DNA of 64,000 bases, from positions 11,133 to 75,132 of IMG/VR virus record IMGVR_UViG_3300050146_000027; one strand, written 5' to 3'. Positions 1,663-60,547 of the stretch are shown here, piece after piece (the stretch's first letter is position 1; each line of letters begins with the position of its first letter). The stretch comes from a virus. Its lineage: Duplodnaviria; Caudoviricetes. Made by a program: the position numbers and the translations under genes. The notes under the pieces were generated by a model. The model did not search any database. It saw only the letters and a program-made list of their open reading frames with translations, and was not told the DNA's origin.

Positions 1663-1832
1663 GGGGCTTTACTCCCACAAGAGTTGCAACAGTAGCCCCG
1701 CATCACAGGCCACTTGCAATGGCGGCATGTGTAGATCTGCGGTGCCCATTCAGTGAGCATTTCAAGCTTTCTTTCCTCAAACTGCTTTGAAGTCGGTGGG
1801 CTTGGCAACTTGCGTTTTTCTTCATCAGTCAT
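1659..1832 (-). CDS. Small zinc-ribbon-like hypothetical protein
   Basis: MTDEEKRK...CRHC...CCNSCG; start overlaps the RNAP1 stop. Confidence 0.55.
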   Translation of the reverse strand: MTDEEKRKLPSPPTSKQFEERKLEMLTEWAPQIYTCRHCKWPVMRGYCCNSCGSKAP

Positions 1833-2644
1833 TCGACATGCTCCTTGTTGGCGAATTGAATTACTGCCTTGTTCCACGCAGCACCTTGATAGGTGACGTG
1901 GTAGCCCTGGCAGTACGTGCGACCACGCTTGTCGTACTTGTGGGTCAAATAGAAATCTGATCCCTCACGTTGAAGCAGGTCGATGACATCTCGTGCAGTG
2001 CGATCGTATTTCTCGAAGGCACGCCGGCGACGATCAAAGTCGGCCTTGGTCTCGCCCTCTTTGGGCTTGTCCAGATTCCGCCACTTGTTCTTCACCATCT
2101 GAGCAGTGCGATGATCGATGGTCAGCTTGATGGCATTCATGCGGTTGATGTGGTCGAGACACACATCATCATCATGGTGGTTGTTCCGGAGAATGACTGA
2201 CCCCTTGGAGGTCAGGTAGCCATTCTCTTTGTTGGTTCCCACGAACTTCGGAGGTACCACCATTGGCAGAGGGAACTGGAAGCGATCCAGTTCTTCTTGC
2301 ACCTTTTCGGAGACTGTGAACTTGACGATGAATGTCTCCAGGACAGGGTCCCAGTCCATGAGATCAGCCTCAGCACTGCGATACAGCAGATCAGCACACT
2401 CTTGTGGATCACGAGTGAGATGCTGCAAGCAGCCCACCATGATTGGCAGAGATGCGCGTTTGTGCAGTGCCATTTGTGTGAGCACTTCAATGGCAAAGCC
2501 TGATGGAATGCCTTTGCTCTCGGCGTATTTCATGAAGTCGAATTCGCTGCAGCCAGCGAACTCTGCACGAATGCGAGGGAGCAACTGGTTTTTGTTGAAC
2601 AGTTGTTCCAGTTGGATCTGATGCTGCTTTTTGGCGTCTCGCAT
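1829..2644 (-). CDS. N4-like RNA polymerase II subunit 1 (gp15 homolog)
   Basis: C-terminal FYLTHKYDKRGRTYCQGYHVTYQG..WNKAVIQFA motif and RFQFPLPMVVPP, characteristic of N4 RNAP1. Confidence 0.9.
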   Translation of the reverse strand: MRDAKKQHQIQLEQLFNKNQLLPRIRAEFAGCSEFDFMKYAESKGIPSGFAIEVLTQMALHKRASLPIMVGCLQHLTRDPQECADLLYRSAEADLMDWDPVLETFIVKFTVSEKVQEELDRFQFPLPMVVPPKFVGTNKENGYLTSKGSVILRNNHHDDDVCLDHINRMNAIKLTIDHRTAQMVKNKWRNLDKPKEGETKADFDRRRRAFEKYDRTARDVIDLLQREGSDFYLTHKYDKRGRTYCQGYHVTYQGAAWNKAVIQFANKEHVE

Positions 2645-4845: not shown

Positions 4846-5301
4846 TCAGTGTTGAGAGTTGAGCTTCAGTTCTATACGAACTGCTTTGTCCACGAGTTCT
4901 TTGATGTAGTCACCGTGGCATTGTTGTGGTGCGCAGAAGCAGACCAGATTGACTGGCATGCCTTTGAGCACCTTGTTGGCGATGTCGTCAAGCTCTTTGA
5001 TCACAGGCTTGTCTGCCTGCGAGAGCTTTGTGGTCAGCCATCCAGCGTAGAGAGCACAGACCATCTTGCGAGGGACTGATGCTGTGATGGCATGGGGATT
5101 GCCCAGCCTGGAGCCACGGCCGATGTACACGTCATCAGGTGTGGGTACATGGGTGTGCTTGTTGACCACGGTCACCTTCCCAGGTGCCACGGCTGCATGC
5201 AAGAGCATGACAGCGTGATTTGCCCAATCAGCTTTGGTGCGGCAACGGCCACACTTGAAGTCCCAGTTGGACTGGAGGCCTTTCTTGCATGCGCATTGCA
5301 T
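4846..5301 (-). CDS. DUF4326-family protein
   Basis: VVNK...DVYIGRGS.LGNP and NLVCFCAPQQCHGD motifs. Confidence 0.75.
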   Translation of the reverse strand: MQCACKKGLQSNWDFKCGRCRTKADWANHAVMLLHAAVAPGKVTVVNKHTHVPTPDDVYIGRGSRLGNPHAITASVPRKMVCALYAGWLTTKLSQADKPVIKELDDIANKVLKGMPVNLVCFCAPQQCHGDYIKELVDKAVRIELKLNSQH

Positions 5302-7515: not shown

Positions 7516-7836
7516 TTAGGCCTTGAGCAGAGTTGCGAGCTCGTCGTAAGCTTGTTGGTACTGAGTACCATGTTGCTCACTTTGCTTGGCGAATGCTTGC
7601 ATTTGGATGCGTGACTCGGCCAGTTCCTGTGCCTTCTCCTGATGGAGAGTCTTCTCGAAGATGGCGTTGTCCAGCTTGGAGCGGACTTCTTGGCGAAGAG
7701 CAGCGTCAGTGACGAACTTGTTTGCCATGCCAACAGCGGAGTTGATGGCGGTGAGTGCACCAGTAGCAGTATTGGCAGTTGTTTGCACAGCAGCCAGGAT
7801 GGAGCCAACGGTCATGCGTGAGTTAGCGACGGACAT
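7516..7836 (-). CDS. N4 gp1 homolog (first early gene)
   Basis: Ala/Thr-rich N-terminus (TATGALTAINSAVGMAN) and helical C-terminus like gp1 of N4/LIT1; first gene behind a hairpin promoter. Confidence 0.7.
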   Translation of the reverse strand: MSVANSRMTVGSILAAVQTTANTATGALTAINSAVGMANKFVTDAALRQEVRSKLDNAIFEKTLHQEKAQELAESRIQMQAFAKQSEQHGTQYQQAYDELATLLKA

Positions 7837-8498
7837 GTGATGTACCTCAAGATAAGTAGGAAGGATGGATCGATGATGATCCCTACAAGAGGCGCAGCCT
7901 CAATGATGTGGGGTAGGCGTGTGGTCGGTGTGGATACCCTATACCCGCACACACATATGACCCAAATCACTATGTCCCCTCATATTTATTCTGAGGATCT
8001 ACTCACTACCGAGATATCTTAGAGGGAGATCGGCCCCTTTCTTTCTTGGTTCATGCCAAGGGCTTCTCACCACAAAAATATATTGTGGGAAGCTATAGGG
8101 GCGAAGCGATCCACATGAGGAGGTAGCACCAAGGCACGTCTGAGCGCAGCGAGGACGTGGCCTGCAGTGCGGACGAGGATGGGGGATTGCTGAGCGCATG
8201 AATGCTACCCACCAATGAAAGAAGGGAGACCTTCACAGATCTCCCTTCAGTGTCGCAGCAGGATTGAGGAGCCTCCCCTGCGACTGTAGCTGTTACCCAC
8301 CTGCTACTGGGGCATGGCGCAACTCGTCGTACAACCAAGAAGCAGCTCCAGTGTAGCGGAGCCCTTTGCCGTAGGCAATGGGCAATAGGGGACACCATCT
8401 CTTGTCTTCATTTTGTTGAAGGAGATTTCTACAGGGTGTGATAGAGTTTAGGCTTACCTTCGTCGAAAGACAACCCTCAATCTTTGTTGGAGAGACCA
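7837..8498. other. Probable genome-terminus / terminal-repeat junction region
   Basis: 660-bp non-coding gap with divergent transcription between gp1 (N4 left end) and the gp69/terminase block (N4 right end); contains several inverted repeats. Confidence 0.65.
7885..7901 (-). promoter_or_regulatory. vRNAP early hairpin promoter (P1-like)
   Basis: Template strand ACAA-GAGGC-GCA-GCCTC: C:G-closed GNA triloop with G at -8, about 50 nt upstream of gp1. Confidence 0.65.
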
Positions 8499-9278
8499 AT
8501 GAACAGCGCACATGACCTGACCGAAGTCGAGATCAAGAACCTGATTGCCCGTGGCACTGCCCCGAAGATCGAAGAGCATGAGATCGAAGCTCTGATTGTC
8601 AAGGAAGAGTTTCACCAGTTTGCAGGCACGACCCTCATCACCTGCGTGTTGACTTTGAAGAACGGCTACACCGTGAGCGGTGAGTCGGCCTGTGCAGATC
8701 CCACCAACTTCAAGGAAGACACTGGCCGTGCTCTGGCCCGCAAGCAAGCCAAGGGCAAGATCTGGTCGCTGGAAGGCTATGTGCTGAAGAACAAGCTGGC
8801 CTTGATCGAAGCAGCAACCAAGCCCACCAAGCCAGATGCAGATGTCAAGACCTACGTCGGTACGAAGGTGGTTCATGCTTGCCCGATGACTCGACTGGCC
8901 TACAACAAGCTCCGTGGTTGGGAGTTGCCTGCAAATGAAAATGGCGATGACGCCGGCTATCTGGTGGAGTACGCCGACGGTGGTGCACCCAACCTGCCCT
9001 CGTTCCGTGGCTACGTCAGTTGGTCCCCCAAGGATGTCTTTGAGAAAGCCTACACCACTGGGGTAACTTTGAAGAAGACCACCTATGTGGAGCGCATGCT
9101 TGAAGAGGTCGCTCAGCTGGGTGAAAAGATCAGGCTGCTGGACAAGTTCATCGAAGGCAGCATCTTTCCGACCATTGACATTCAGGATGGACAAGATCTG
9201 GTGCTTCAGTTGCAGGTCATGAGCGAGTACCACAGCATCCTGAGCCGTCGCTTGCAGCGGGCACAGAAACAAAGCTGA
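8499..9278 (+). CDS. Three-domain fusion: Phage_gp49_66-like + YxGTK...SWSP domain + crAss001_48-like hairpin (putative multi-signal anti-defence sponge)
   Basis: D1: TCVLTLKNGYTVSGESACADPTNF...G..LA...IWSLEGY. D2: YVGTKVVHACPMTR...GYLVEY...YVSWSPKDVFEKAY. D3: YVERMLEE..QL..KI..L..F...LVLQLQVMSEY..IL.RR. RBS GGAG. Confidence 0.75.
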   Translation: MNSAHDLTEVEIKNLIARGTAPKIEEHEIEALIVKEEFHQFAGTTLITCVLTLKNGYTVSGESACADPTNFKEDTGRALARKQAKGKIWSLEGYVLKNKLALIEAATKPTKPDADVKTYVGTKVVHACPMTRLAYNKLRGWELPANENGDDAGYLVEYADGGAPNLPSFRGYVSWSPKDVFEKAYTTGVTLKKTTYVERMLEEVAQLGEKIRLLDKFIEGSIFPTIDIQDGQDLVLQLQVMSEYHSILSRRLQRAQKQS

Positions 9279-9361
9279 AGCTGATCATTGGGGCATCGCG
9301 CCGCAGGCGCGAGCTACTCCAAGAGTAGCGAGCCCCTCTTACGACATAAGTAGGAAGAACC

Positions 9362-9601
9362 ATGCCCGATTACCTGGACCCCTTTGGGAACTACGACCAC
9401 ATCAAGTCACTGCCGATGGCAGAGGCCGTTGCCCGAGCCAAGGAGATGCAACAGCAGATCCTTGCCTTACATGAAGAAGTCTCCAAGGAGATCCGCATGC
9501 ATGTGTCGACTGTGAAGAGCCGCGAGACGATCCGTGCCAAGATTGCTGTACTCCAAGAAGAGATGAAGTTCCTTCTTGTTCGTAGTGCACTAGCAACCTA
9601 A
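9362..9601 (+). CDS. Coiled-coil hypothetical protein
   Basis: 79-aa ORF with RBS TAGGA. Confidence 0.6.
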   Translation: MPDYLDPFGNYDHIKSLPMAEAVARAKEMQQQILALHEEVSKEIRMHVSTVKSRETIRAKIAVLQEEMKFLLVRSALAT

Positions 9602-9615
9602 GTAGGAAGAAGATC

Positions 9616-10290
9616 ATGACATTGACCGTAGCTGACGTTGCTAAGGCCCTGCCCCCCAATCTCAAGGGGGCAGCCACTCCTGAGTTCGTTGACCAGATCA
9701 ACAACATCGTGACTGACCCGGAGGTGGCCCAGCATGTGCGGGACAACTTCATCAGCTACACCAAAGTCTTGCAGGATGGGAAGTTCAAGACTGAGGACTA
9801 CCTGCATGCGGTGACTTACGTCAGCTTCAAGCTCATGGGGCTCTCCAATCAGGATGCCTACTTCCGTACCTTCCCGGCTCGACATGCTCGACTGGTAGCG
9901 GCCGGCACTTCATCGAAAGACATTGCCGCCTACGTCTCGGGCTACAACCGAGGCAAGTTGGTGAACCTGATCCTGGAGCAAAGCTTGGTGCCCACCTGGG
10001 TTCTGAACCAAGACATCTACCAGAAGGCCATCAACGTGCAGGCTGACTTGATGGCCAATGCCATGAGTGAGCTGGTTCGCACGCAGGCAGCCAACTCGCT
10101 GCTGACTCACCTGGCCAAGCCCAAGGAAGCCGGCCCGCTGGTAAACATCGACATGCGTGAGAGCTCTGGCATGAACGAACTCAAGGACACCCTCACCAAA
10201 TTGGCACTGCAGCAGCAAGCTCTGATCCAAGCCGGTGTGTCTACCAAATCGATCGCTGAACAGAACATCATTGATGTGGAGGCCAAGTAA
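9616..10290 (+). CDS. N4 gp69 homolog (conserved gene upstream of terminase, possible small subunit)
   Basis: ALPPNLK...RDNFISYTKVLQDGKFKTEDYLHAV.YVSFKLMG.SNQDAY motif; synteny. Confidence 0.8.
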   Translation: MTLTVADVAKALPPNLKGAATPEFVDQINNIVTDPEVAQHVRDNFISYTKVLQDGKFKTEDYLHAVTYVSFKLMGLSNQDAYFRTFPARHARLVAAGTSSKDIAAYVSGYNRGKLVNLILEQSLVPTWVLNQDIYQKAINVQADLMANAMSELVRTQAANSLLTHLAKPKEAGPLVNIDMRESSGMNELKDTLTKLALQQQALIQAGVSTKSIAEQNIIDVEAK

Positions 10291-11882
10291 TGACCGCTCT
10301 CATCAAACAAGACTTGGATCTGTGGTTGGATCAAGTCAACTACGCAGACATCAACAGCTCGTTGTATCTGCCGTCTGAGTTTGCACTGACGTTCATGAAC
10401 TTCATCAAGTTGGTGAACGGGAGCCAAGGAGAAAGCAACAAGACTCCTGCAGTTCACTTGAAGATGCTGGACAAGGTTGTGGGTCCAAGCGACTACATTG
10501 CCAACCTCTGCTTTCGTGGTGCAGCAAAGACCACGCTCTTCATGGAATACTTCAGTCTGTTCCTTGGAGTATTCCACTGTCTGCCAGGATTCGGTGCTAT
10601 TGATGGGATGATCTACGTCTCAGACTCTATGGACAACGGCGTCAAGTCAGCACGGAAGAACATTGAGTTCCGCTACAACAACAGTGAGTTCTTGCAGCAG
10701 TGGATTCCGGAAGCGAAGTTTACTGACGCCTACATCGAGTTCAAGAACCGATCGGGCGAGATGCTGGGCATCAAGATGTTCGGTGCCAAGACCGGTCTGC
10801 GGGGTACGAAAATCTTTGGCAAGCGCCCTGTCATTGCCATCCTTGATGACTTGGTGAGTGATGATGACGCCAACTCCAAAGCGGCCATGAGCACCATCAA
10901 GGACACGGTCTACAAGGGCGTGAACCATGCACTGGATCCAACCCGTCGCAAGGTGATTTTCAACGGCACTCCGTTCAACAAGGATGACATCCTGATCGAA
11001 GCGGTTGAATCTGGTGGCTGGGATGTGAACGTCTGGCCAGTCTGCGAAAGGTTTCCATGCAGCCGAGAAGAGTTTGTCGGTGCTTGGCCAGATCGATTCA
11101 GCTACGACTACATCCAAAGTCAGTACGAGCTGGCTGAGAAAACCGGGAAGCTGTCTGGTTTCTACCAAGAGCTCATGCTTCGCATCTCGTCTGAGGATGA
11201 GCGCCTTGTGCAAGATGCAGAAATTCGCTGGTACAAGCGGGCGCAGATCCTCAGCAACAAGGGGATGTACAACTTCTACATCACGACTGACTTTGCCACA
11301 AGCAAAAAACAGACCGCCGATTACAACGTGATCAGCGTTTGGGCCTACAATGCCAATGGCGATTGGTTCTGGGTAGATGGTATCTATGTTCGTCAGACCA
11401 TGGATCACACGATCAACGATCTGTTCCGGCTGGTGCAAGCGTACCGACCACAGCAAGTAGGCGTCGAGATCACAGGCCAGCAGGGTGCTTTCATTCAGTG
11501 GCTTCAGCAAGAAATGCTGAGTCGGAATATCTGGTTCAACTTTGCCAGCTCCGAGAAAAGCAATGAGCCCGGCATTCGTCCTTCTGTTGACAAGCTGCAG
11601 CGATTCAACCTTGTTGTCCCTTGGTTCAAGACCGGCAAGATGTACTTCCCTGAAGAGATGCGGCAAAGTACCATCATGGGTGCGTTCATGCAGCAGATTC
11701 GTTTGACCACGATGTCTGGCATCAAAGGCAAGGATGACTGCCTGGATACCATCTCGATGCTCGGATACTTGAAACCCTGGAAGCCGGCCGACGCTGTACC
11801 ATTGAGTCAGCGTGACGATGGCGTCTGGGAACCAGATGAAGAAGAGGCATCGCCGTCTGCTTTGTCTTCCTACCTTGTGTGA
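10290..11882 (+). CDS. terL: Terminase large subunit (gp68)
   Basis: Walker A-like CFRGAAKTT, Walker B ILDDL, nuclease YITTDFATS and GKDDCLDTISM. Confidence 0.95.
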   Translation: MTALIKQDLDLWLDQVNYADINSSLYLPSEFALTFMNFIKLVNGSQGESNKTPAVHLKMLDKVVGPSDYIANLCFRGAAKTTLFMEYFSLFLGVFHCLPGFGAIDGMIYVSDSMDNGVKSARKNIEFRYNNSEFLQQWIPEAKFTDAYIEFKNRSGEMLGIKMFGAKTGLRGTKIFGKRPVIAILDDLVSDDDANSKAAMSTIKDTVYKGVNHALDPTRRKVIFNGTPFNKDDILIEAVESGGWDVNVWPVCERFPCSREEFVGAWPDRFSYDYIQSQYELAEKTGKLSGFYQELMLRISSEDERLVQDAEIRWYKRAQILSNKGMYNFYITTDFATSKKQTADYNVISVWAYNANGDWFWVDGIYVRQTMDHTINDLFRLVQAYRPQQVGVEITGQQGAFIQWLQQEMLSRNIWFNFASSEKSNEPGIRPSVDKLQRFNLVVPWFKTGKMYFPEEMRQSTIMGAFMQQIRLTTMSGIKGKDDCLDTISMLGYLKPWKPADAVPLSQRDDGVWEPDEEEASPSALSSYLV

Positions 11883-17653: not shown

Positions 17654-19867
17654 ATGCAGACCGACACCCAACATCCACAGTCCCCAGACGTTTCCAGCAA
17701 GATGACAACCTGGGCCAATGAGCCCACGTTGGCTGCATTGAAGACAGATCTGGAAGCGGCCAAGCCTGCACACGATGCTCAGGTTGCTCGCATCAATCAC
17801 TGGAATGATCTGCTGAAAGTCAAAGGCAATGCCAAGCCCAAGACGGTGAAAGGTCGATCTTCTGTTCAACCGAAATTGATTCGTCGCCAAGCTGAGTGGC
17901 GATACTCGGCTTTGAGTGAGCCGTTCTTGAGCTCACCCAAATTGTTCAACATCAATCCGGTGACGTTTGAAGACACGAAAGCGGCCAAACAAAATGAGTT
18001 GGTGCTGAACTGGCAGTTCCGGACCAAGCTCAACCGTGTGAAGTTCATCGACGATTACGTGCGTGCCACTGTCGATGAAGGCACCTGCATTGCTAAGCTC
18101 GGATGGAAGCGAGCAACCAAAATGGTCAAAGAAGACGTGCCTGTCTTCGATCATTTTGAAATTGACAATGAAGAGAATCTCAAGGTTCTGCAGCAGGCCA
18201 TTGAGCTCAAAGTTTCGAATCCTCGTGAGTTCGAAGAAAAGGCAAGCCCTGAAGTCAAGGCCAGCGTTACTTTGTATGAAGAGACTGGTCAGGCCACGAT
18301 TGCCGTAAAAAATGGCACTCAAAAGGTTGATGTCGAAAAGGTGCTGGAGAATCGCCCTATCGTCGACATCATGAACCCAGCCAATGTCTACATCGACCCG
18401 AGCTGTGGTGGTGACATTGACCGGGCTATGTTTGTTGCCATTACCTTTGAGACCTGCCATGCAGATCTGAAGAAGGAAGGCAAAAAATACAAGAACTTGG
18501 GCAAGGTTTTGCTTGATGGTGCCAATCCATTGAACGAACCCGACCATGCCACCAATACCCCGAACGACTTCAACTTTGCTGACAAGGCACGGAAGAAGGT
18601 CGTGGCCTACGAATACTGGGGCTATTTCGACATTGAGGGTAATGGCGAGCTGGTTCCATTTGTGGCTACCTGGATCGGCAATGTTTTGATTCGAATGGAG
18701 CTCAATCCATTCCCCGACCAGAAGCTCCCTTTTGTTGTGGTTCCCTACCTGCCGGTCACTCGTGATCTGTACGGTGAGCCTGATGCTGAGCTGCTGGAAG
18801 ACAATCAGCGTGTCCTGGGTGCGGTCATGCGTGGCATGGTTGACTTGATGGGCAAGTCGGCCAATGCACAGCAGGGCATGGCCAAGGGTTTGTTGGATCC
18901 TTTGAACCGTCGTCGATTTGATTCCGGTGAGAACTACGAGTTCAACCCCAATCAGCATCCCAACAACGGGATGCTTCAGCATACCTTTCCAGAGATTCCT
19001 CAGTCAGCCATGCTGATGCTGGGTTTGCAGAACCAAGAAGCAGAAGGCCTCACTGGTGTGAAGTCCTTCAGTGGTGGTGTCTCAGGTGCTGCTTACGGTG
19101 ACGTGGCTGCTGGTATTCGGGGCGCACTGGATGCTGCCTCCAAACGAGAGATGGCTATTCTCCGTCGTTTGGCTAAGGGCATGTCGGACATTGGCAGCAA
19201 AATCATTGCCATGAACGGTGAGTTCATGTCTGAGTCGGAAATCATCCGGATCACCAATGAAGAGTTTGTCGATGTGCTTCGTGAAGACCTGGCCGGCAAC
19301 TTCGACTTGGAAGTGGACATTTCGACGGCTGAGGTTGATGACGCCAAAGCCAAGGACCTGGGTTTCATGCTGCAGACTCTGGGTCCAAACATGGACAGCA
19401 GTATCACCATGATGATCCTGTCTGAGATTGCTCGACTCAAGCGCATGCCTGAATTGGCCAACATGCTTACCAATTGGAAACCTACTCCCGATCCTTTGGC
19501 TCAGGCTCTCAAAGAAGCTGAACTTCAAAAAGCCCAGAAAGAGGTTGAAAAGCTGCAAAGCGAGATCGACCTCAATCAGGCCAAAGCTGCTGAAGCTCGT
19601 GCCAGCAAGGAACAGAAAGACTTGGACTTTGTCGAACAGGAGACCGGTACCAAGCACGCCCGTGAACTTGAGAAACAAGGTGGCCAGGCTCGTGGCAATC
19701 AGAATTTGGAAGTGACCAAGGCTTTGCTGAAATCACGCAAGCCTGATGAATCTGCTCCTGATGTTGAAGCAGGTATTGGCTTCAACCAACTTAGTGATAT
19801 GATTGAGGGAGGACAAGGCCAACCTGGCCTGGGTTCCATCCCAGCAATCCAAGCACCGAGCTACTAA
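17654..19867 (+). CDS. Portal protein (gp59)
   Basis: 737 aa; [26 protein letters not shown] and [17 protein letters not shown], as in N4 portal. Confidence 0.95.
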
Positions 19868-19881
19868 GAGGAATTTCCACC

Positions 19882-20217
19882 ATGTCTGAAACCGCCGCAC
19901 TGATCAAGCAACAAGAAGATGCCAAGGCCTTCATGGCTCGCCGTGATACGGCTTTGAGGCTCTACGACAATCCTGACTTCAAGAAACTCATCCTGAAGGA
20001 ATTCTGTGTCGAAGAATGTGCTCGCTACGTGCACACCAGTGCCGACCCTGCGCTGAAGCCGGAGAATCGTGCTGATGCCCTGGCTCTTGCCCAGGCTGCT
20101 GGCCATCTTCGCCGCTGGTTGTCGGTGGTTGTCCAGATGGGCAATCAGGCCGAAGGCCAACTCCAAAGCCTGGATCAGGCCATCGAAGAAGCTCGTCAAG
20201 AAGGGGGCGCTGAATGA
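19882..20217 (+). CDS. N4 gp58 homolog
   Basis: LYDNPDFKKLILKEFCVEECARYV...AQAAGHLRRWL; synteny. Confidence 0.8.
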   Translation: MSETAALIKQQEDAKAFMARRDTALRLYDNPDFKKLILKEFCVEECARYVHTSADPALKPENRADALALAQAAGHLRRWLSVVVQMGNQAEGQLQSLDQAIEEARQEGGAE

Positions 20218-21429
20218 CTGGTGAAATCCTCGCCATGTCGGACGAGGAGTTTCTGAAACTCAGCGAACCCCCGGCAGTGTCTGGGGCTTCGACTGAATCG
20301 TCAGATTCCACGGTCACCGACGAAGAGCGTGCTGCTGAACAGGCTGCAGCCGCTTCTGCCCAAGCTCAAGCAGATGCTAACGCAGCTGCTGAGTTGTCCC
20401 GTCAAACTGAAGAAGCAGCTGCGCTTGCCTCACAATGGTGATACAGTCGCCACCGAGTCCGGTGAGCAAACTCCCACGGCAAACAAGCCCGCTGAGAATG
20501 CGCCCCCTGTTGATCAATCAGGCAAGGCAAATTCCAGTGGCGAGTCCACAGAAAATTCTTCTGTTGGTTCCAAGGCTGAAGGCCAGGGTGAGACTCCCGA
20601 CTATGAGGGGTTCTACAAGCAGATCATGTCGCCGCTAAAAGCGAACGGCAAAACGATCACTTTGCAGGATCCCAAAGAAGCGATTCAGCTCATGCAGATG
20701 GGCGCCAATTACACCCGCAAAATGCAGGAATTGGCGCCTCACCGCAAACTGCTGATGATGCTTGACGCCAACGGCTTGATGGATGAAGGTCAACTTTCTT
20801 TTGCCATTGACTTGGTGAAGAAGAATCCTGAAGCCATCAAGAAGTTGGTCAAAGACGCTGGCATTGATCCTCTGGATATTGATGCCAGCACTGAACCGAA
20901 CTACCAAGCAGGCAATCACAGGGTGTCTGATCAGGAAGTGTCTTTCGCCACTGTCCTTGACGATGTCAAGGGCAAGGATGGCGGTACCGAGACGCTCCGG
21001 GTCATTCAGACCCAATGGGATCAAGCCAGCAAGGATGTGTTGTGGGCAAACCCAGATCTGATGGACACGATTCACGAACAGCGTGCTTCGGGCATTTATG
21101 GCCGAATTGCCGATGAAGTGGAACGCCAAAAGACCCTTGGTGCCATCCCTGCTCAGATGCCTTTCATCCAAGCCTACAAGGCTGTCGGTGACAAACTGGC
21201 TGATGCCGGCGCGTTCAACGATCTGGTGAAGACAGAGCCAGCGAAACCTCAAGAGTCCAAGACTCCTGTGGCCACTCGTGCAGCTGTTGTCAAACCGGTG
21301 GTCAAGAATGGCGACAAGGTCAATGCTGCTTCGGCAATACGAACCACTCCCAAGACTGCTGAAATGAAGGTCAATCCTTTGTCGCTGAGCGACGATGACT
21401 TCATGAAGCAAATGGCAAACCGCCTGTGA
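20214..21429 (+). CDS. N4 gp57 homolog (scaffold/tape-measure-annotated), interrupted by a +1 frameshift near 20430
   Basis: N-terminal [10 protein letters not shown] is in ORF 20214-20441; conserved ANGK...[17 protein letters not shown] is in an overlapping ORF ending 21429 that has no suitable start of its own. Confidence 0.75.
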
Positions 21430-29541: not shown

Positions 29542-29704
29542 TTGAGTGATTTTGGCACTGACTACATCAGTCCGGAAGGCAAAAAGGTTTTTCAAAGTCG
29601 TGTTGCTGAGGCTAAAAGTGGAGGTAAACAACTGACTGAAGTTGAAATCCTTCGCGCAAAGCAGGCAGGGTTGCTATGATTATGGGAACTCTCAGGAACC
29701 AAAC

Positions 29705-32700
29705 ATGGCTGACGTCAACTCCCTTCTGAATCATGCTCTCAGCATGATGTCTGCTCCCACAGCAGTCGATACCAAAAAGCAGTCTGTTGCTGCAGCAGTC
29801 GATGAAAAGAAAAGTGCCCTGGGCAAGACCCCGGACTTTTACCAAATCGCTGCTGCAGGCAGTACCGATGCTGGTCTGGCTTCTGCTGGTGAGTTGGAGA
29901 AGGACGTGCGGACCATGAACCAGAGTCAGCTCTGGCAGAAGTACGGTGACAAAGCTCCCCAACTGTTCCGCCAAATGGCTGATGGTCAGCAAAAGTTTTC
30001 TGCTGACATGACGATCGATCGTAATGCTGGTGAGCTCTTTAGCGACTCTACCTCAGGTGCTGCTTCTAGTTTTGTTGGTGGCTTGGGTAGCATTGCTGCT
30101 TTAGGTACTGGTCTGGTCAATGCAGACGCCGGTGCTGCTTTGTCCGGTGCTGTGGCCAAAATGGGTGAGGTTGTTCAGGGCGTTCAGTCGGAAGGTGTTG
30201 GCGCTGCACGTCGAGTTCAACAAGCTCGCTCAGCCAACACCAGTCGCGATAACGAACAACAGTACAACCAAGACGTTGCCGATGGCAGCTCTGAGTTGGT
30301 TGCTGGCTTGAAGCAGTTTGGTCGTGATTTTGTTGACACAGCAGGCAACTCCACAGACGCGGCTTTTTTTGCCCAAGGCACCGCCGAAGCAGCCGGCTCC
30401 CTTTTGTCTGGCTCTCCTGTGGCTGCAGGTCTTCGCAAGATTGGCACAGCACTTATGGGCGGAGCTGCCAAACAACGTGCTGTTGCTTTGGCTGCCCAAA
30501 TTGACCGCACCACTGGTGTTGCATCGACTGCTCGTGTCGCTGATCGTGCTCGCAAAATTGGCTCGGGTGCGGCTTGGCCTCTGGCAACTGCAGCACTTGA
30601 AGGTGGTGGTGCCTACACAGGCACGGTCAATGAAATCATGGGCATGACTCATGATCAGCTGCAAGAAGGCTCTCCTCAGTATCGTCAAATGTTGGCTGAC
30701 ATGGTAGCCAGTGGCGTTCCTGTTGCTGACGCACGAGAACAAGTCAAAGTCACTTTGGCGAACCAAGCAGGGGAACAGGCTGCTGCCATCCAGGCCCCTA
30801 TTGCAGGCGTCACTGGTTTGCTGACTCGTGCTTTGGAAAAACCCTTCACTGCACCATCTGTGCGTGCTGCCGCTCGTGCTACGTTTGTCAACGAACCTGT
30901 TGAAGAGGCTGTTCAGTCATCGACTGGTCAGCTGGCTCAAAACATTGGTGTCCAAGCCAATGCCAATGAGAACCAAAATCTGGCCAAGGGTGTTGGCGAA
31001 CAAGGTGCCATGGGTGCTATGTTTGGCATGACTTCTGCAGGTAGTGTTCAAGGTCCTGCTGTTGCCGGTTTGGGTGCACGCAATGTGTATCGTGGAGCCA
31101 AAGCTGCCGTGTCTGCTGCTGTGGAAGCAGGCAAGCCTTTGTACCAAGCACTCATTGAACGTGGTGACCGCATTCTGCGTCAGCAAGAACAAGCTTCTCC
31201 TGTCAGCGATGAAGCCATCACCGCAGCAACCAACAATCTCAACGCAGTCGCTGAAAACTCGACTGCTGTGATGACGGAAGCCTTGAACACAGCCAAGATC
31301 GATGAAGCAGTCAAGCAGTCCGGCAACCAGTACGTTTCCTCTTTGGTTCAGTCTCTGCAGTTTGACCCAGCTGAGTTGGAAGGTGCCCCTGACTATGTGC
31401 GTCAAGCTGTGGGTGATACCACCTCTCGTGCTGAAGCCGCCATCAAGCTGGCCGACTTGGTGAACAAGTCTCAAACTGATCAAGATGCTTTGAACAACGC
31501 AGCAATGCTGTGGATGCTCATGGAACCTGTGAAGGCCATGAAAGAAGCTGACCCAGAGGCGTTTGCTTCACTACCCAAGGACAGCCCTGCTCTGTCGCTT
31601 GTGCAGCAGTATTCCCAAGTCGCGAACAGCATTGAAGCCAATGCTACTGTTCGACGTGCACTTCGTGCTGTTGAGCCTTTGCTGACTCGTGCGGCCGCTA
31701 CGATTCAACCGGTGACTGAAGAATCTCTGGCCACTCCAGAAGGTCAACAGAACGTGCAGAACGCCATTGCTGTGGCATCGCTGCACCCAGACAAAGGCAA
31801 CCTGGACGCCAACGAACAGATCTTGACCCATGCTGCCCAGGGCAAGCTGAATCTCACACCCGACCAGCTGAACACGCTGAAGACTTCTGTCACGTTGCTC
31901 CGAGCTCGTGCCAAGATGGAGGAACAGATTGCTGCTTCTGGCACCCGTCGGGTCAAAGATGTGGTGTCCAGTCAGATCGTGGCCGGCAATGATCCTCTTC
32001 GCAAGGTGGCCAAGTCTGCTTTGCAGCACACGCAGGAAATCCTGTCTGCCATGCGAGGCCAGAACTCTGAATTGGCCACAGCTCGTCTTGAGGATTTTGG
32101 CAAGTTTGTTCAGCACATGCAGAACAAAGTCATGGCCCTCAACACTCACTTTGCAAACGGCAATCCGAATGCAGATGGCGTGCCATACCAACAACTCCAG
32201 CCCACAGGCAATCGTGATTTCAGGCTGTCGCGTGATGGCATGTTTGTCAACACAAACAAAGGCAGCTCGATCGATTTGGCCCAGTCTGCTGCCATCGAAG
32301 CACAAATCTTGGCAGACGTATACAACGGTCTGGTGGGCACCTTTCCTGAACTCAATCAAGCCACCATTGCAGCAGTGCCATTGGATGCTGCGTTGATCGG
32401 CGATTCTGAGACTCTGGCTCAAGGCTTTCGTGATGCACGCAAGCCAGCCAAAGCACAGCCTGTGGAGACTGACAATGCAAACCGAAATGTCGATGGTGAG
32501 CCAAGTGCCGTGGTACCTGCACGAGATGTACGGGTGGCAGCTGGGGATGAAACAGTCGTTGCAACTCCTGCTCCAACAGAAGTTGTTGACCAAGGACGAA
32601 GCGAAGCAGTTCCACCAGTTGTGGAAACAAAACAAGACAGCACCCCCACACCTGTGGTCGAAGTGCGAGATCCTGTACCTGACGCAGTTGATGCCAGCGA

Positions 32701-35700
32701 ACCGCCTGCCAGTGTGATCACCACTCCTCTGGATGATTTGTACGGTGACAACAACTTTGCTCGGTCCAGCTTCGTCTACCCAGATGAGGCCACAACCCGC
32801 CTCAGTGCTGAAGAGTCTCCAATCGCTGCAGTGCGTCGTGCACTGTCGAGCGAGACCCGCTTGAGTTCTTTCCTCTTTGGTTCGACCAAGCGAAATACTT
32901 TGAAGCCTGAAACTGCTTCTGCTTATCAACGGCTGCTCACAGACACCCTGGCACCAGTGGTCATGGCTGTGCAGCAGCAGTTGGCTGACTTCTTGAACAG
33001 CAGTTATTCCAAGAGCGTTCCACAAACGATGCAGGAAATTTTCCTGAACAACATCGAAGTTCCTCGCAAATCTGGCAAGCCATTGATGGGTTCAGAAATG
33101 AACCGACTGGCTCGCGCCAAGGTGCTGAACTTCACTCAGTTGGACAGCAATGGCAACTTGATCTACCAACCCCAGATGTTGGAACAAGCATCGTTGGCTG
33201 CCATGCAGTGGCTGCTGTCGTCTGATTCTTTCTCCAGTGTGATGGATGAGTCTGACGTGGCCCAGATGACTGGCCTGTCTGAAACAGCACTGCAACGAAA
33301 CCCTGAACTGATTGAGCAACTGACTGAAGGCATGAGCGTTGCTCAGGCCAAAGGCTCACTCTCGATCAAGATTCGAAAGTACATGGGGCTGCAGTCGAAG
33401 AGCACCGCTGACATGGCCTACTCCAACGGTATCATCAATGCGATGGCTGCCGAGCTTCTGCGTGCCATGGCTTCTGCTGGGTTGCTGGAGATCAACAACA
33501 CCAAGCTGACCCCTGCTGTGCACGGAGTCAAGAAAGACAAGACGTTCACTCGCATCGTTGTCAAAAAGCTGGATGACAAAGAAGCTCTGGCTTCTTTTCA
33601 GGACGCCATTGAAGTGGCTTCACTGGTTGCTCCCGAAGTCACCAATTACATCGGTGACGTGACTCCTGATGTCGCTGAGCGTCAGATGAACAACAACGAA
33701 GTGGCGAATACCACGAACCAAAAGGATGCATTGAGCAAGGAACAACAAACTCCTTTCTACGTGAATCCTGCCATGGTCAGTTTCTACACATCGCTGGGCA
33801 AAGACAATTTGCTGGCCTTGTTTGGAACTTCGTTGGATGACGAAGAGGTGTTCAACGATGCTCACTTGAAATCAGTGAAAAGCAAGAACAACTCTGTGAC
33901 TTCGGCTTTTGATCATCTGCTTAGTGTCTTAGCTGATGTCAGCAACGTGGCTGAAACTGCAGGGACTGCTTTGGATCAAACCCCGATCCGTTACGCCTAC
34001 AACATGAGCCGAGTGGGTCGCATGCAAATGCTTGGCAAGTACGGTCCACAAGCCAGCAAGCTGGTTCGTGAGGCCATCCTGCCTACTCGATCCACTCTGA
34101 ATCTGTCCAACCAGAACAGTGGGTCATTTACTGCCTATGGTCTGGGCTTGGCCCAAGCCCTTGGCATCAAGGTGCACAACCAGCCGGCTGACGTGTCCGT
34201 AACTGAGGTCATGGCCAAGCTGAATGGTGGTCTGGCTCCTGCTGTTGAAATGGTTCGTGAATGGTTGTCGGCAGTCGATTTGAATCGCCCTGCCGAAATG
34301 ACTGCCGAGCTCACGACAGACCAAGTCATGCAGCTCAAGGATGCCTTTGCTGCTGCCAAAGCAGATCTCTCGATGGTTGGTCTGCATGCTCTTGTTGATT
34401 ACGCTCGCTACTTGGCCAGTGAAGATCAATCAGCATTCCAGACTTCAATGTACTTGGAAGCAGACGGCGTCACCAACGGTCCCATCAATGCCATGGCCCT
34501 GATGAGCATCGGTGGTTTTACGCCGGCATGGGTTAACAATGTTTCCAAGGGTGGTTTGGCATTTGGCCAGCCCACTACGATGGCCGACATTCGCAAAAGC
34601 GACTCCAAGGATCTGTATCAGGCATCGACTGATGCAACTCGTGCACGCCTCTCTGAACTCCGGGATTCCCTGAGCCAAGAAGGTACTGAGCAAATGGATC
34701 ATCTGCTCAATCTGATGTCGCTGTTCAGCCCAGATGTGATTTTCAATCCAGATGCCAAATGGGAAGATGGCTCTTTGGAGCTGAAGCGTGGAATCGCCAA
34801 GAACCCTCTGACCATTACCATCTACGGCTCAGGCCAGTCTGGTATTGCAGGCAAGCTGACTGGTGCTTTGGTCGATGAGATCTACGCACGCATGAGCACG
34901 CTCCTGCAGGCACGCAAAGCCAATCCAGACATCTCGGTGGCCGATGCCATGTTCCCTGGTGATCTTGATGCTGCCAACAAGCTGGATCGTTTCAGCAAGT
35001 CGATTCATGCTCTGACCACTCTGGTGCCTGTTCGTGAGAAAGGCAATCTGCTTTTTGATGCAGTCAGCCAACCTGCCCGCAAGTTTGTGCCCAAGACGTT
35101 CAGCTTCACAGCCAGTGAACTGGAAACCATGGAAGCCAACATGCTGGAGCTGTTCGTGAAGCCGATGCGTCAAGGCATTGCTGACACTGTCGGTGAGCCA
35201 TTGATGCAGGCAGTTGCTACCCTCCGTGATGCTGCTCAAGTGCAATCGATCTTCTTGGAAGCGATGTACGTCCAACGCATTGATGAGGCCATGAACAAAA
35301 AAGAAGCCACCGATCCGATTTGGCGTCGTGGTGACTTCTTGAGTCAAGCTGAACTGAAAAAGATCACTGCCGACCTGCGTAACATTTCTCCTTTGGTTCA
35401 GACAGGGGATCAAACTTTCCTGATTACCAGCAAACAGACACTTGACCTCGAAGGTCGTGATCTGGAATTTGGTCGTGCACTGGATGACAGTCTTCGTCCT
35501 GACGCAGACATGTTTGGTCCTGGCCAAGCTGGTGTGCGTGCAATCCCAATGATGACCATTGGTATGGGCGACGGCATGATGATGCAACTGCTGGCCCAGA
35601 TGGGCTTGCAAGGCACGCTCAAGATCTTTGATGGCATGAACATGCCTTTGGACAAGATCGGTCAGTACAGCGAACAAGCCAATGCTGCTGTTTACGAATC

Positions 35701-38700
35701 GTGGAAGGGCAACCCACACGCTGAGATGCTGAAGACTTTTGAGACGTTCTTGGACAATGTCTCTGAAGCAACAATCACACCGGCCATGCTGCCTACTCTG
35801 ACTCAGACTTTGTTCTCGTCGTCAGAGCGTCGTTCCATGGCAAAGACTGGTGAAGTGCCCAGCAATGCAATGATCATGGAACGGATCAAGCAACTGCAAG
35901 GCAACTTGGAATGGTCTGCCAAGAGCATTGATGCTCGTCACGCTGCCATTGAATCTTTGCCTGTGTCGGTTGACCAGATGGCTGCTGCCGGCCGCCCATA
36001 TACGAACGGCCGTACAACTACCGCACGCATGACCACTGATGATGCTGTGGCTGCTTTGAACAAGGCCTATGAAGCTGCCATGGATGGCGGTGCTGTTCCA
36101 GCGACCGCACCCATCGCTTCCGTGCCTGCTGTACCAAAGGCTGTCGCATCCCCCATTGACTTGGTGGGTCGTGTTGCTGCATCTGGGGTTCGTGTTCTGT
36201 CGCCTACTGCCATTGAGAGCCTTTCCCGTGACGGCATGACTGAGGCACAAAAAGCTGTCTACAGCGAGATCCGTCGATCCAATGCAGTGCAGGGCTACAA
36301 GGTGGTAGCTGGTACGGCTGAGCAACTTGATGCATTCATCGCTGAGACTGGCCGCTCACAGCGTCCAGCCCAAGAGGTGCATGGCTGGATCAACGTTGGT
36401 GACAAGACCATCTACATGATCAACCCGTCGGTTGAGACTCTGGTCCACGAGCTTGTGCATGCAGGTTCCTATGAGACGGTTCTGGCTCACTATCGTGGCG
36501 AGAGTGTCAGCACTGAAGTGGCTGCTGCTGTCGGTCGCCTGGAAACTTTGATGGCTGAGTTTGTTGAAACTGATGTCAGTCAGTTTGATCCAGCACTGCG
36601 TGCTGCTTACGACTCAGCCAAGGCTGCAATCCTTTCGGCCAACTTGGAATCGGATCAGTCTGTGGCCATGGCCAAAGCACTGAATGAATTCATGGCCTGG
36701 GGCTTGACCAACGAACAGCTGACCAAGGACCTGAAGAGTAAGCCTGCTCCTGTTCTGGTCCGTTTGGCCAAGGGCATCGTTGCTGCGATCAAGTCTCTGA
36801 TCTGTGGCCGCAAGATTGCACCCAAGCCTGCCGACGATTTCCTCAGCAACCTGCAATTCAACTCTGGTGTGATCTTCCGCAGCCAACCCAACATTGCTGC
36901 TGTGGTTCGCAGCGGTGAGCTCTATCACTCGACTGCCTATGGCAACTCCAACCGCATCAACACCATCCGTCAGACGTTTGCTCAGAAGATCGTTGACCTT
37001 CTGGCCACTGAGAAGTGGCAACGTGGTACGAAGATGCGTCAGGTGGAAGTCTCTCAAGCTGTGCAAGAAGCTGTCTTGGTGGGTCTGTCCTTTAATGCCC
37101 ACGGCTTTCCGATGAACCAACAAGAAGGAACTACCTTCCGCATGATGCTGGCTGCCCTGGCTACTGAAGCCGACATTGACGCAAACTCGATGGATCGTGC
37201 ACAAGAGCTCTACGCCCACGTCTCCAAGAACTTGACGGTTGAAGACTTCATGGCTGATCCATCTTCATTGGATCCCCAGATGCGTTACGACGCACAAGAG
37301 AAGTACAGCGTGATCATGGGCCAGTACCTCACGGTGAAAGATGCCAAGGGTCGCAGCTCACTGCTCCCATCATTCCTGGCTCTGGCTACTGTGAACGATG
37401 AGTTCCGTGCTGTTTTGGCCAAGATGGCTTTGCCCAAAACTGTCAAGAACATGGATGGCACTTTGGATTCGATCTTGAGCAATGCTGGCGACTCGGTGAT
37501 GGACTCTTTGAGCCGTCGCTTGGCCGGCGATGTCAAAGGCAAGTCGGTTCGTGACTCCATCGACAACCTGCTGGAGCACATTCGCAAGGAAGCCCAAAAC
37601 GAACAAACGTTCCTTGACCAGTACGCTTCAGTCTCTGGTGGCATCGTTGACCGTGCCAATGAAATTGTGACCAATGGTCTGAAAGCTGCTTCTGACGCAT
37701 TGCTTGCTCGTGCTGATGCTGCTGAGAAGAATGCATCGAATGCTTTGGTCAAGAGTGGTGCCCGCTTTGCCAAGCTGGTGGCTTTGGTGGCAAGCGAGAA
37801 GAACGGTGCCATCATCTCTGAAGGTCTGCTGGCATCCACCAACGCCACAAAGATGTGGGAGCCCCTGCGTACTTTCATCAGCGACATGGTTGGTCGGACT
37901 GAGTCCAATGCCAACGTGTACGACATGATCAAAGCAGTTCGCTCAGCAGTGCAGCAAACTCGTCAGCAGTTCCGTGATGGGGTGCCTCAGATCATCAACA
38001 GCAAATTCAAGAAGAAGGTGACTCCTGCTCAATGGACCGCAATGTTCAGCACCCTGGCCAAGACTGACCTGGCTGTGCTTCGCGGTTCAATGCAGCATGC
38101 TGAGATCGCAGCTTTGATCTCTGACCAAGCTGCTCGTGACACTGAGATCAACAAACTGGAAGCTCAGATTCAAGCTTCGAATCCTCGCCACTGGGCAATC
38201 TTGTCGGCCAAGATGAAGCAACTGGCTGTGTTCATGAACACTGGTGTCCCTGGTGTGAACCTGCTTCGCAATGCAGAAGCCATCGGTCGCCTGCTTGGTG
38301 AGCAGAAGGCCAACAACTACAGCCTGCCCAATGCAACCACCAAAACTGCCATCGACAAGCTGGTGAGCCTGTACGCTTTGGAAGCACTGCCTGACGCTAC
38401 CCGAGACACAGTTTCCTCTTTGGTTCAAAGCGAAGCAGATGGTGTCAGCTTTGTAGTTGACTACTTGGTTGGTCAACGCAAAGAGGAAGTTCGCAAGGCC
38501 ACCGGCACTGCAATGCTGAATGCTTACAAGGGCTACATCCCTTCTGAACAAGAAGGCGGTGTGTCCATGCAAATTGCCAGTGACTCGGAGTTTGCCAACC
38601 TTCGTGAGCTTGGCTACGTTCGCGTTGCTCCTTACAAGGGCAGCTCTGTCGAACTTGGTCAAGAGCTCAAGAGCTACTACTACGCTCCTTTGTCGGGACG

Positions 38701-60452: not shown

Positions 60453-60547
60453 TGGGCATTGTAGGCAGGACTCGAACCTGCACAGGGATCTTCGATCTCC
60501 CAGGCCTGCGAAGGAGGCCCACGTCTACCAATTTTGTCACTACGCCC
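60453..60547 (-). tRNA. Aberrant tRNA-like gene 2 (Leu-like type II body, loop CCUUCGC)
   Basis: AAATTGGTAGACG D loop, GGCCT/AGGCC anticodon stem, long variable arm, GCAGG-TTCGAGT-CCTGC T arm; acceptor GGGC-GTAG / CTAC-(AAT)-GCCC. Confidence 0.7.

Follow-up and report, generated by a model that had tools for sequence, protein, structure and literature searches.

A 64,000-nucleotide stretch of phage DNA (bases 11,133–75,132 of the 75,132-bp IMG/VR virus record IMGVR_UViG_3300050146_000027; hereafter the window) carries, at positions 8499–9278 of its plus strand, a gene whose 259-residue product (P0001) is in our judgement likely to be a multi-signal anti-defence sponge of the Acb4–Sequestin type from a phage of the family Schitoviridae, a reading that draws on sequence, structural modelling and analogy with a characterized fusion protein. 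Three modules make up the chain: an Acb4-family domain (D1; residues 25–105, positions 8571–8813), an unnamed Pfam-negative module that is self-contained in the model (D2; residues 117–186, positions 8847–9056) and a Sequestin-family helical hairpin (D3; residues 195–258, positions 9081–9272). The two-signal sponge is already published biology, to which P0001 adds a variant and not a new principle; the new part is the behaviour of D2 as a hub, and the papers searched give this module a single sentence.

The division into three modules had been proposed in an earlier note on this DNA, made from the sequence alone, and it was borne out, with borders that agree within a few bases. In an AlphaFold2 model of the 259-residue protein, built with 40 homologues (mean predicted local distance difference test score, pLDDT, 87.7), the modules are compact and are joined by short linkers of lower confidence. 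The first linker (residues 106–116, positions 8814–8846) is non-regular between helix H73-105 and strand E117-120, with a block-mean pLDDT of 76–85, and its length differs among the 40 aligned homologues; the second (residues 187–194, positions 9057–9080) has a block-mean pLDDT of 70–76.

By profile and by model, D1 is a member of the Acb4 sponge family, in keeping with the Phage_gp49_66 likeness that had been recognized by eye. Residues 25–100 (positions 8571–8798) match PF13876 over profile positions 2–82 of 82 (E = 3.2e-24; 85.7 bits, cut-off 27), and a scan of the phage's own genome with this profile gives the sponge gene 88.2 bits. The modelled domain has the alpha-beta-beta-beta-alpha core fold of SPO1 Acb4, and Foldseek aligns it with the structure of that protein bound to 3'3'-cGAMP (PDB 9E4W; Chang et al. 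2025) at E = 5.6e-4 to 1.4e-3 and probability 1.00, with a template-modelling (TM) score on the target of 0.66–0.76 and a root-mean-square deviation (rmsd) of 1.5 Å over 68 residues (1.2–1.6 Å over 65–70 residues for most chains). SPO1 Acb4 thus has the fold and Pfam family of D1 but is a stand-alone protein of 96 amino acids with about 26% identity to D1; a phmmer search of PDB sequences with the whole of P0001 returned only a weak Acb4 match (E = 0.4).

D3 is likewise, from its sequence and modelled structure, a member of the Sequestin family. PF21825 covers residues 195–254 (positions 9081–9260) at profile positions 2–61 of 61 (E = 3.4e-13; 49.7 bits, cut-off 24.8; 52.5 bits in the scan of the phage's own genome), and the model shows a two-helix hairpin (helices 196–219 and 228–258; block pLDDT 91–98), in agreement with the crAss001_48-like hairpin of the earlier note. 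The pocket modelled for 3'cADPR in the known proteins is lined by R8/E12/Q47/R61 in SequestinA and R7/E11/Q45/R59 in SequestinB; alanine mutants of the E, Q or second R lose anti-Thoeris activity, and a mutant of the first R keeps it (Tal et al., 10.1101/2025.07.12.664507). The putative ligand residues of D3, R199 (positions 9093–9095), E203 (9105–9107), Q237 (9207–9209) and R251 (9249–9251), have the 4/34/14 spacing of SequestinB, a mapping that rests on spacing and on the register of the hidden Markov model (HMM) and not on direct alignment with SequestinA. E203, Q237 and R251 do not vary among the 40 homologues, and conservation of R199 is at least 90%. SequestinA, SequestinB and T4 Y16O (PF21825; Tal et al. 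2025) are helical hairpins with the same conserved R, E, Q and R, but they are stand-alone proteins of 60–80 amino acids, whereas D3 is the C-terminal third of a 259-residue chain. The family identities on which these assignments depend (PF13876 for Acb4, PF21825 for Sequestin and PF11195 for Tad2), agree with the literature (10.1101/2025.07.12.664507; 10.1101/2024.12.30.630793); of the profile searches that the earlier note suggested, PF13876 and PF21825 match P0001, and PF11195 gives no match for D2.

The closest characterized counterpart is gp59 of the N4-like Pseudomonas phage vB_PaeP_C2-10_Ab09, a tetrameric 147-residue fusion of an N-terminal Acb4 and a C-terminal Sequestin domain in one chain (Fedorova et al., 10.64898/2026.06.04.730250). 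Ab09 gp59 is a tight binder of 1''-3' gcADPR and a weaker one of 3'3'-cGAMP and 2'3'-cAA; it blocks type I Thoeris and, in part, type II-A CBASS (anti-phage signalling based on cyclic oligonucleotides), and it triggers Panoptes (10.64898/2026.06.04.730250). A pairwise alignment with P0001 runs end to end over both shared domains at 34% identity and includes all four of the residues R199, E203, Q237 and R251. The two domains abut directly in gp59, whereas in P0001 they are separated by D2, which appears relative to gp59 as one clean insertion of about 75–80 amino acids at the Acb4/Sequestin junction. The proposal that one polypeptide could sequester several signals is the best reading of P0001, because such an Acb4–Sequestin fusion has been shown experimentally to do so; by this analogy D1 and D3 together very probably act as gp59 does, soaking up the signals of type I Thoeris and CBASS in an oligomeric assembly. 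The three-module architecture is found in most of the closest database matches and in 21 of the best 150 cluster representatives described below. Profile scans indicate that P0001 is the only Acb4 and the only Sequestin copy in its own genome, and they find no Tad2 gene there.

We infer the oligomeric state of P0001, the ligands of its D1 and D3 and any activity of D2. In the proposed mechanism, the Acb4 domains would build a tetramer and hold cyclic dinucleotide (CBASS-type) signals in the pockets between its protomers, and the C-terminal Sequestin hairpins would pair as antiparallel dimers, each with two pockets for the type I Thoeris signal 3'cADPR (1''-3' gcADPR). The signals would be bound and not cleaved, and the host effectors would never be switched on. 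D2 most likely pairs as a (domain-swapped) dimer between protomers, as suggested by its homology to the N-terminal domain of the RyR Tad sponge.

Several observations weigh against P0001 being a sponge of this kind. The residues that contact the ligand in SPO1 Acb4 (K36, F48, E49, V56, Y57, F62, N63, I66 and T70; Chang et al., 10.1101/2024.12.30.630793) are mostly replaced in D1: the phmmer alignment pairs K36 with T45, E49 with T58, Y57 with A66 and T70 with L79, so that the nucleobase-specific contacts K36/E49 and the phosphate contacts Y57/T70 are gone, and aromatic character is kept at two positions (F48 to Y57 and F62 to F71). All eight of the Acb4 homologues tested bind 3'3'-cGAMP, yet they differ on 3'3'-cAA; because of these differing specificities and the substituted contacts, the ligand of D1 is not predictable, and there is still room for binding. 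The gene also lies outside the primase–virion RNA polymerase (vRNAP) hotspot of anti-signalling genes in N4-like phages; gp59 is located in that hotspot, whereas the P0001 gene stands at the head of the terminase/structural late block, 5' of a gp69-like gene and the large terminase gene (TerL). No sigma-70-like promoter was found in a scan of positions 7700–9700. Finally, residues 1–86 of gp68 of Pectobacterium phage vB_PatP_CB1, which include the only functionally tested homologue of D2, have no anti-Thoeris-I activity alone, type I Thoeris being the only system reported.

The position of the gene raises the question of whether P0001 is instead a component of the packaging machinery or the virion, for example a small terminase. 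Position is the only point in favour: the gene (8499–9278) lies just 5' of the gp69-like gene and TerL, an order common to Rhizobium phage RHph_X3_15. Two of the three modules, however, are bona fide sponge families, and other phages carry the modules elsewhere (behind the lysis cassette in Escherichia phage Huey, in the head module of Clostridium phage vB_CpeS-CP51 and next to vRNAP in phage N4), a variety of locations typical of moron or anti-defence cargo. A packaging or structural role is therefore highly improbable, and a multi-signal sponge is the reading that we carry forward.

D2 is, according to its sequence and model, a self-contained, highly conserved, acidic and aromatic-rich alpha/beta module. 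The motifs quoted in the earlier note, TYVGTK, GYLVEY and SWSPKDVFEKAY, all lie within residues 117–186. No Pfam family matches D2 even at E <= 10; it does match phrog_872 (E = 3.9e-27) and phrog_9467 (E = 7.2e-30), both without functional annotation. Modelled alone (pLDDT 90.5), it consists of a beta-hairpin, a helix, an acidic loop, a strand, a loop, a strand and a helix. Mean pairwise identity is 70% for D2 (minimum 59%), 45% for D1 and 36% for D3, and 19 of the 28 invariant positions in the alignment of 40 homologues fall in D2, where the conserved lysine, arginine and aromatic residues are K123, R132, R139, Y135, W141, Y158, Y172, W175, F181 and Y185. The module has a mean net charge of -3.2 (n = 298), and 14% of its residues are aromatic. 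A reading of the acidic loop (N-E-N-G-D-D-A-G-Y-L-V-E) as EF-hand-like was dropped, the loop being shortened in CP51 and gp68.

Structure comparisons give D2 no named fold. Foldseek against a PDB copy without the RyR Tad crystal structure returned nothing convincing (best E = 1.4), and VIA-align against 48,161 chains, also without that crystal, gave a best Z of 4.1 for a DUF1653 protein (3BE3; rmsd 2.0 Å over 51 residues), followed by weaker likenesses (Z 2.4–3.2) to small beta domains of the chromo, Tudor, CarD-like and Mfd-RID types. The DUF1653, chromo, Tudor and CarD folds were rejected as identifications, their Z scores being below the level at which a fold can be named. Neither does D2 show a detectable sequence relation to Tad2, with no PF11195 match at E <= 10 and a probability of 0.6% when it was aligned by hhalign with the Tad2 domains of D2–Tad2 fusions; in fold, apo SPO1 Tad2 (8WJE_D) appears at a weak Foldseek E of 3.2 with a TM score of about 0.3 and is absent from the VIA-align results.

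At E <= 1e-3 an exhaustive phmmer search with D2 recovered 1,559 cluster representatives, and 815 of these also pass E <= 1e-10. The module is present in 133 of 50,697 phage genomes, which include phages of Proteobacteria, Clostridium and Parabacteroides and a crAss-like phage; it is about 70% identical between distantly related N4-like phages and less so in phages of three bacterial phyla, Proteobacteria, Firmicutes and Bacteroidota. Architectures were counted with our own domain HMMs in the best 150 of the 1,559 representatives. D2–Tad2 is the most frequent arrangement (33), followed by D2 with a 49–149-residue domain of no recognized family (30), D2–Sequestin (19) and the Acb4–D2–Sequestin order of P0001 (18, plus 3 with extras); D2 occurs alone in 11, as Acb4–D2 in 7 and as D2–Acb4 in 6, and Sequestin–D2, Tad2–D2 and other rarer orders make up the remainder. 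A Pfam tally of the same 150 gives Sequestin in 46, Tad2 in 41, Acb4 in 35 and the Acb2/Tad1 hairpin in 2, so that the remark that D2 is often fused to Tad2 (PF11195) was correct. With RyR Tad and Lockin added, the partners of D2 amount to six unrelated sponge families (Acb4, Sequestin, Tad2, the Acb2/Tad1 hairpin, RyR Tad and Lockin), joined in either order. The Lockin link rests on at least two of the Lockin homologues in Table S4 of Tal et al. 2025, which begin with a D2-like module and of which IMGVR_UViG_3300009488_001237 is an example; the D2 profile matches the N-terminus of one of them with 43.6 bits (E = 5.9e-11).

Stand-alone D2 proteins form clusters in the ESM Atlas of 78 amino acids (114 members), 67 amino acids (75 members), 93 amino acids (78 members) and 75 amino acids (58 members). 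Two stand-alone genes are complete open reading frames (ORFs), and no Pfam family was found among their neighbours. In about 30 of the closest 150 D2 proteins, the C-terminal partner is a Pfam-negative domain of 49–149 amino acids; most of these domains are singletons by BLASTP, with a few small groups (for example, P0019/P0035/P0038/P0039, residues 75–154; P0140/P0143/P0150, the C-terminal ~65 amino acids; and P0175/P0233). Because the known partners of D2 are nearly all signal sponges, these domains are candidates for new sponge families.

D2 is often found within small anti-signalling gene clusters. In Clostridium phage vB_CpeS-CP51 (locus L003, 1795–2465), a 68-residue Tad2 gene is followed by a D2–Acb4 fusion in reverse order; the pair sits between a minor capsid gene and the head genes, and this copy of D2 is without the DGG..PN loop. 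In Escherichia phage Huey (locus L002, 2501–3616), a D2–Tad2 gene is followed two genes on by a stand-alone Acb4 gene, both after the lysis cassette. Both Huey genes are annotated 'anti-CRISPR protein', although Pfam shows only Tad2-like and Phage_gp49_66 domains; to judge from the sequences, the label looks like a mis-annotation, which presumably arose from a link between Tad2 and AcrIIA7.

Phage N4 itself (NC_008720, locus L009, 1133–1986), a model phage of the Schitoviridae, carries both D2 and Acb4, as P0001 does. Its gp49 consists of D2 (residues 7–75; E = 4.6e-31 with the D2 profile) and Tad2 (residues 80–159), whereas its Acb4 is a separate gene (gp48), there is no Sequestin, and the locus adjoins vRNAP. 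N4 is reported to be Panoptes-sensitive through gp48. Because gp48 is still sensed with gp49 present, D2 does not appear to shield in trans against Panoptes, and the idea that D2 is an anti-Panoptes shield was dropped.

A further relative of D2 came to light through a RyR-domain protein of Yersinia phage TG1, found in BFVD, which is related to gp68 of phage CB1, a published RyR Tad sponge. Residues 1–67 of gp68 are homologous to D2 (BLASTP, 32% identity, E = 3e-5), and the D2 profile matches gp68 residues 3–66 with 46 bits (E = 1.1e-11). The family, to which phrog_872, phrog_9467, gp68, N4 gp49 and the Lockin fusion belong, is recognized by a match along the module of about 70 residues with the K.V.A.PMT, GYLV.Y and SWSP..VF motifs. 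The two domains have in common K.V.A.PMT, EGYLV.Y and SWSP..VF and fusion to a signal sponge, but the partner in gp68 is a RyR-repeat sponge instead of the Acb4 and Sequestin domains of P0001, and two features of D2, its RGW motif and its acidic DGG loop, are missing from the gp68 N-domain. Among D2 homologues this domain alone has a crystal structure and a functional test. In the RyR Tad crystal, the D2-homologous domain swaps its strand beta1 with the other protomer, completing a five-stranded sheet and aiding dimerization; sponge activity lies wholly in the C-domain.

In the papers searched, D2 has otherwise left little trace. A full-text literature search for its motifs found no paper, the supplements of Hadary et al. 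contain none of them, and the RyDEP preprint does not discuss the N-domain. In the Sequestin table of Tal et al., at least 148 sequences have D2's SWSP motif, and the passages sampled from it are D2–Sequestin fusions; a search for 'fused' in the main text of that paper found no mention of such a module, which those authors missed only for lack of a Pfam family.

What D2 contributes to a sponge can be judged from these fusions, from its surface and from RyR Tad. Because it also exists as a stand-alone gene, D2 is most likely active in its own right and more than a spacer, a view favoured as well by its six sponge partners, by the variable domain order of its fusions and by extreme conservation, at charged and aromatic positions too. 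A bolder reading, rather less likely than not, is that D2 is an autonomous anti-immune module not recognized before, a new family of sponges or inhibitors added to whichever sponge a phage carries. Its target might be a signal or a host component outside the known families, one option being a positively charged moiety derived from nicotinamide adenine dinucleotide (NAD), given the acidic and aromatic-rich surface. A more specific version, close to the earlier suggestion that D2 is a sponge family flagged by its fusion partners, is that pockets of the D2 dimer sequester a further signal (for example, His-ADPR, N7-cADPR, cCMP/cUMP, cA3 or cA4/cA6), so that three systems would be neutralized. The flagging part of that suggestion held, since the guilt-by-fusion logic that revealed Sequestin is stronger for D2, with its six sponge families; D2 is also small, it occurs alone in clusters of 67–93 amino acids, its homologue dimerizes in a crystal, its invariant lysine and arginine residues and many aromatics fit nucleotide stacking and phosphate contacts, and it was overlooked by Tal et al. 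only for want of a Pfam family. The sponge part fared less well: the gp68 N-domain was inactive against type I Thoeris, D2 is acidic, whereas known sponge pockets are positively charged, only 11 of the closest 150 representatives (7%) are stand-alone, whereas known sponges mostly are, and R132, Y135, R139 and W141 are lost in the distant gp68 and Lockin-fused homologues. We regard this third-signal role as possible but rather doubtful.

RyR Tad, with its swapped beta1 strand and a sponge activity confined to the C-domain, invites the alternative that D2 is only an assembly clamp, a domain-swapped dimer that ties, stabilizes or cross-links sponge oligomers but binds no ligand itself. Such a role suits the negative result with gp68 residues 1–86 and the fact that D2 is fused in 139 of the best 150 representatives, and a dimer would be compatible with dimeric, tetrameric and hexameric partners. 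All six partner families, however, oligomerize without D2, as does the tetrameric Ab09 gp59; stand-alone D2 occurs in hundreds of viral sequences; and an identity of 70%, which takes in many charged and polar positions, exceeds the usual need of a simple clamp. On balance a pure clamp seems unlikely. The net acidic charge argues against a classical nucleotide pocket, so that a protein target or a cationic ligand may be considered instead. In such a case D2 would act on a conserved component of host immunity, as an acidic decoy or inhibitor, or else bind a positively charged NAD-derived moiety in an aromatic cage, and in either form it would accompany the sponge of the phage concerned. The acidic, 14% aromatic composition is consistent with this, the weak fold likenesses (chromo, Tudor, CarD and Mfd-RID, plus DUF1653) include binders of peptides and proteins, and Thoeris inhibitors that are not sponges but bind ThsB or ThsA are known (Tad3–8). 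Those fold matches lie under any reliable threshold, though; it is difficult to name one conserved protein target for hosts that range from Clostridium to Pseudomonas, and N4, with D2 in gp49, is still caught by Panoptes via its Acb4 gp48. A protein or cationic target is still less probable than the clamp.

Within the window, translation of P0001 starts at the ATG at 8499 and ends with the stop codon at 9276–9278 (ORF list and translation). A ribosome-binding site read from the sequence (GGAGAG, positions 8489–8494, plus strand) lies 4 nucleotides 5' of this ATG, which is therefore favoured over the in-frame TTG at 8484.

On the basis of its gene content, the source virus is an N4-like podovirus of the Schitoviridae. 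A 3,547-residue vRNAP ORF at 29,642–40,285 marks it as an N4-like phage, and an N4-type RNA polymerase subunit is encoded at 1,829–2,644 (minus strand). The gp69-like gene (phrog_2109; 9,616–10,290) and TerL (10,290–11,882) lie downstream of the sponge gene, and TerL is at most 77% identical to its counterparts in Pseudomonas phage Arace01, Achromobacter phage Axy13 and Erwinia phage phiEaP8. A megablast search of phage records with positions 8000–10300 found no match. The sponge gene is the first of a rightward late block and is preceded by a divergent gap of 660 bp, beyond which lie leftward early genes.

The non-coding gap (7837–8498) contains several hairpins, including one with a 12-bp stem at 8221–8248; in positions 7700–9700 there are four terminator-like hairpins, none clearly above chance. 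The gap is probably the site of the N4-type genome ends and early promoters in a permuted assembly. The earlier note had placed the gene at the genome end; the record itself places it at 19,631–20,407 of 75,132 bp, so the assembly is probably permuted, and synteny with relatives makes a position near the end plausible. Gene order in Rhizobium phage RHph_X3_15 is identical (gap, three-module gene, gp69-like gene, TerL), the corresponding positions being 71.1–71.8 kb of 76.2 kb in RHph_X3_15 (a record marked circular) and 67.8–68.2 of 70.1 kb in Axy13; in CB1, which has an annotated terminal repeat, no more than about 2 kb separates the gp69-like/TerL block from the repeat.

Between the sponge gene and the gp69-like gene is an ORF (9362–9601, plus strand) for a probably helical protein of 79 amino acids with no PHROG and no significant Pfam match. 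The early block includes a gene with a DUF4326 domain (4846–5301, minus strand; E = 1.5e-17). One tRNA-Glu (anticodon ttc; 60455–60546, minus strand) is predicted at 92 bases, compared with the usual ~76.

The value of this locus lies in D2, a module of 70 residues without a Pfam family or functional annotation in the libraries searched and yet with 1,559 representatives, for which N4 gp49 and CB1 gp68 are ready experimental systems. A finding that D2 serves only to clamp dimers would likewise be new, since it would mean that sponge assemblies require an additional tie. If it is an autonomous module, D2 could be used as bait, and the roughly 20% of its partners that have no known family may be further sponges. 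Should D2 prove to have its own target, it would fill a widespread gap in the picture of phage counter-defence, and its unassigned fusion partners would form a list of further candidates.

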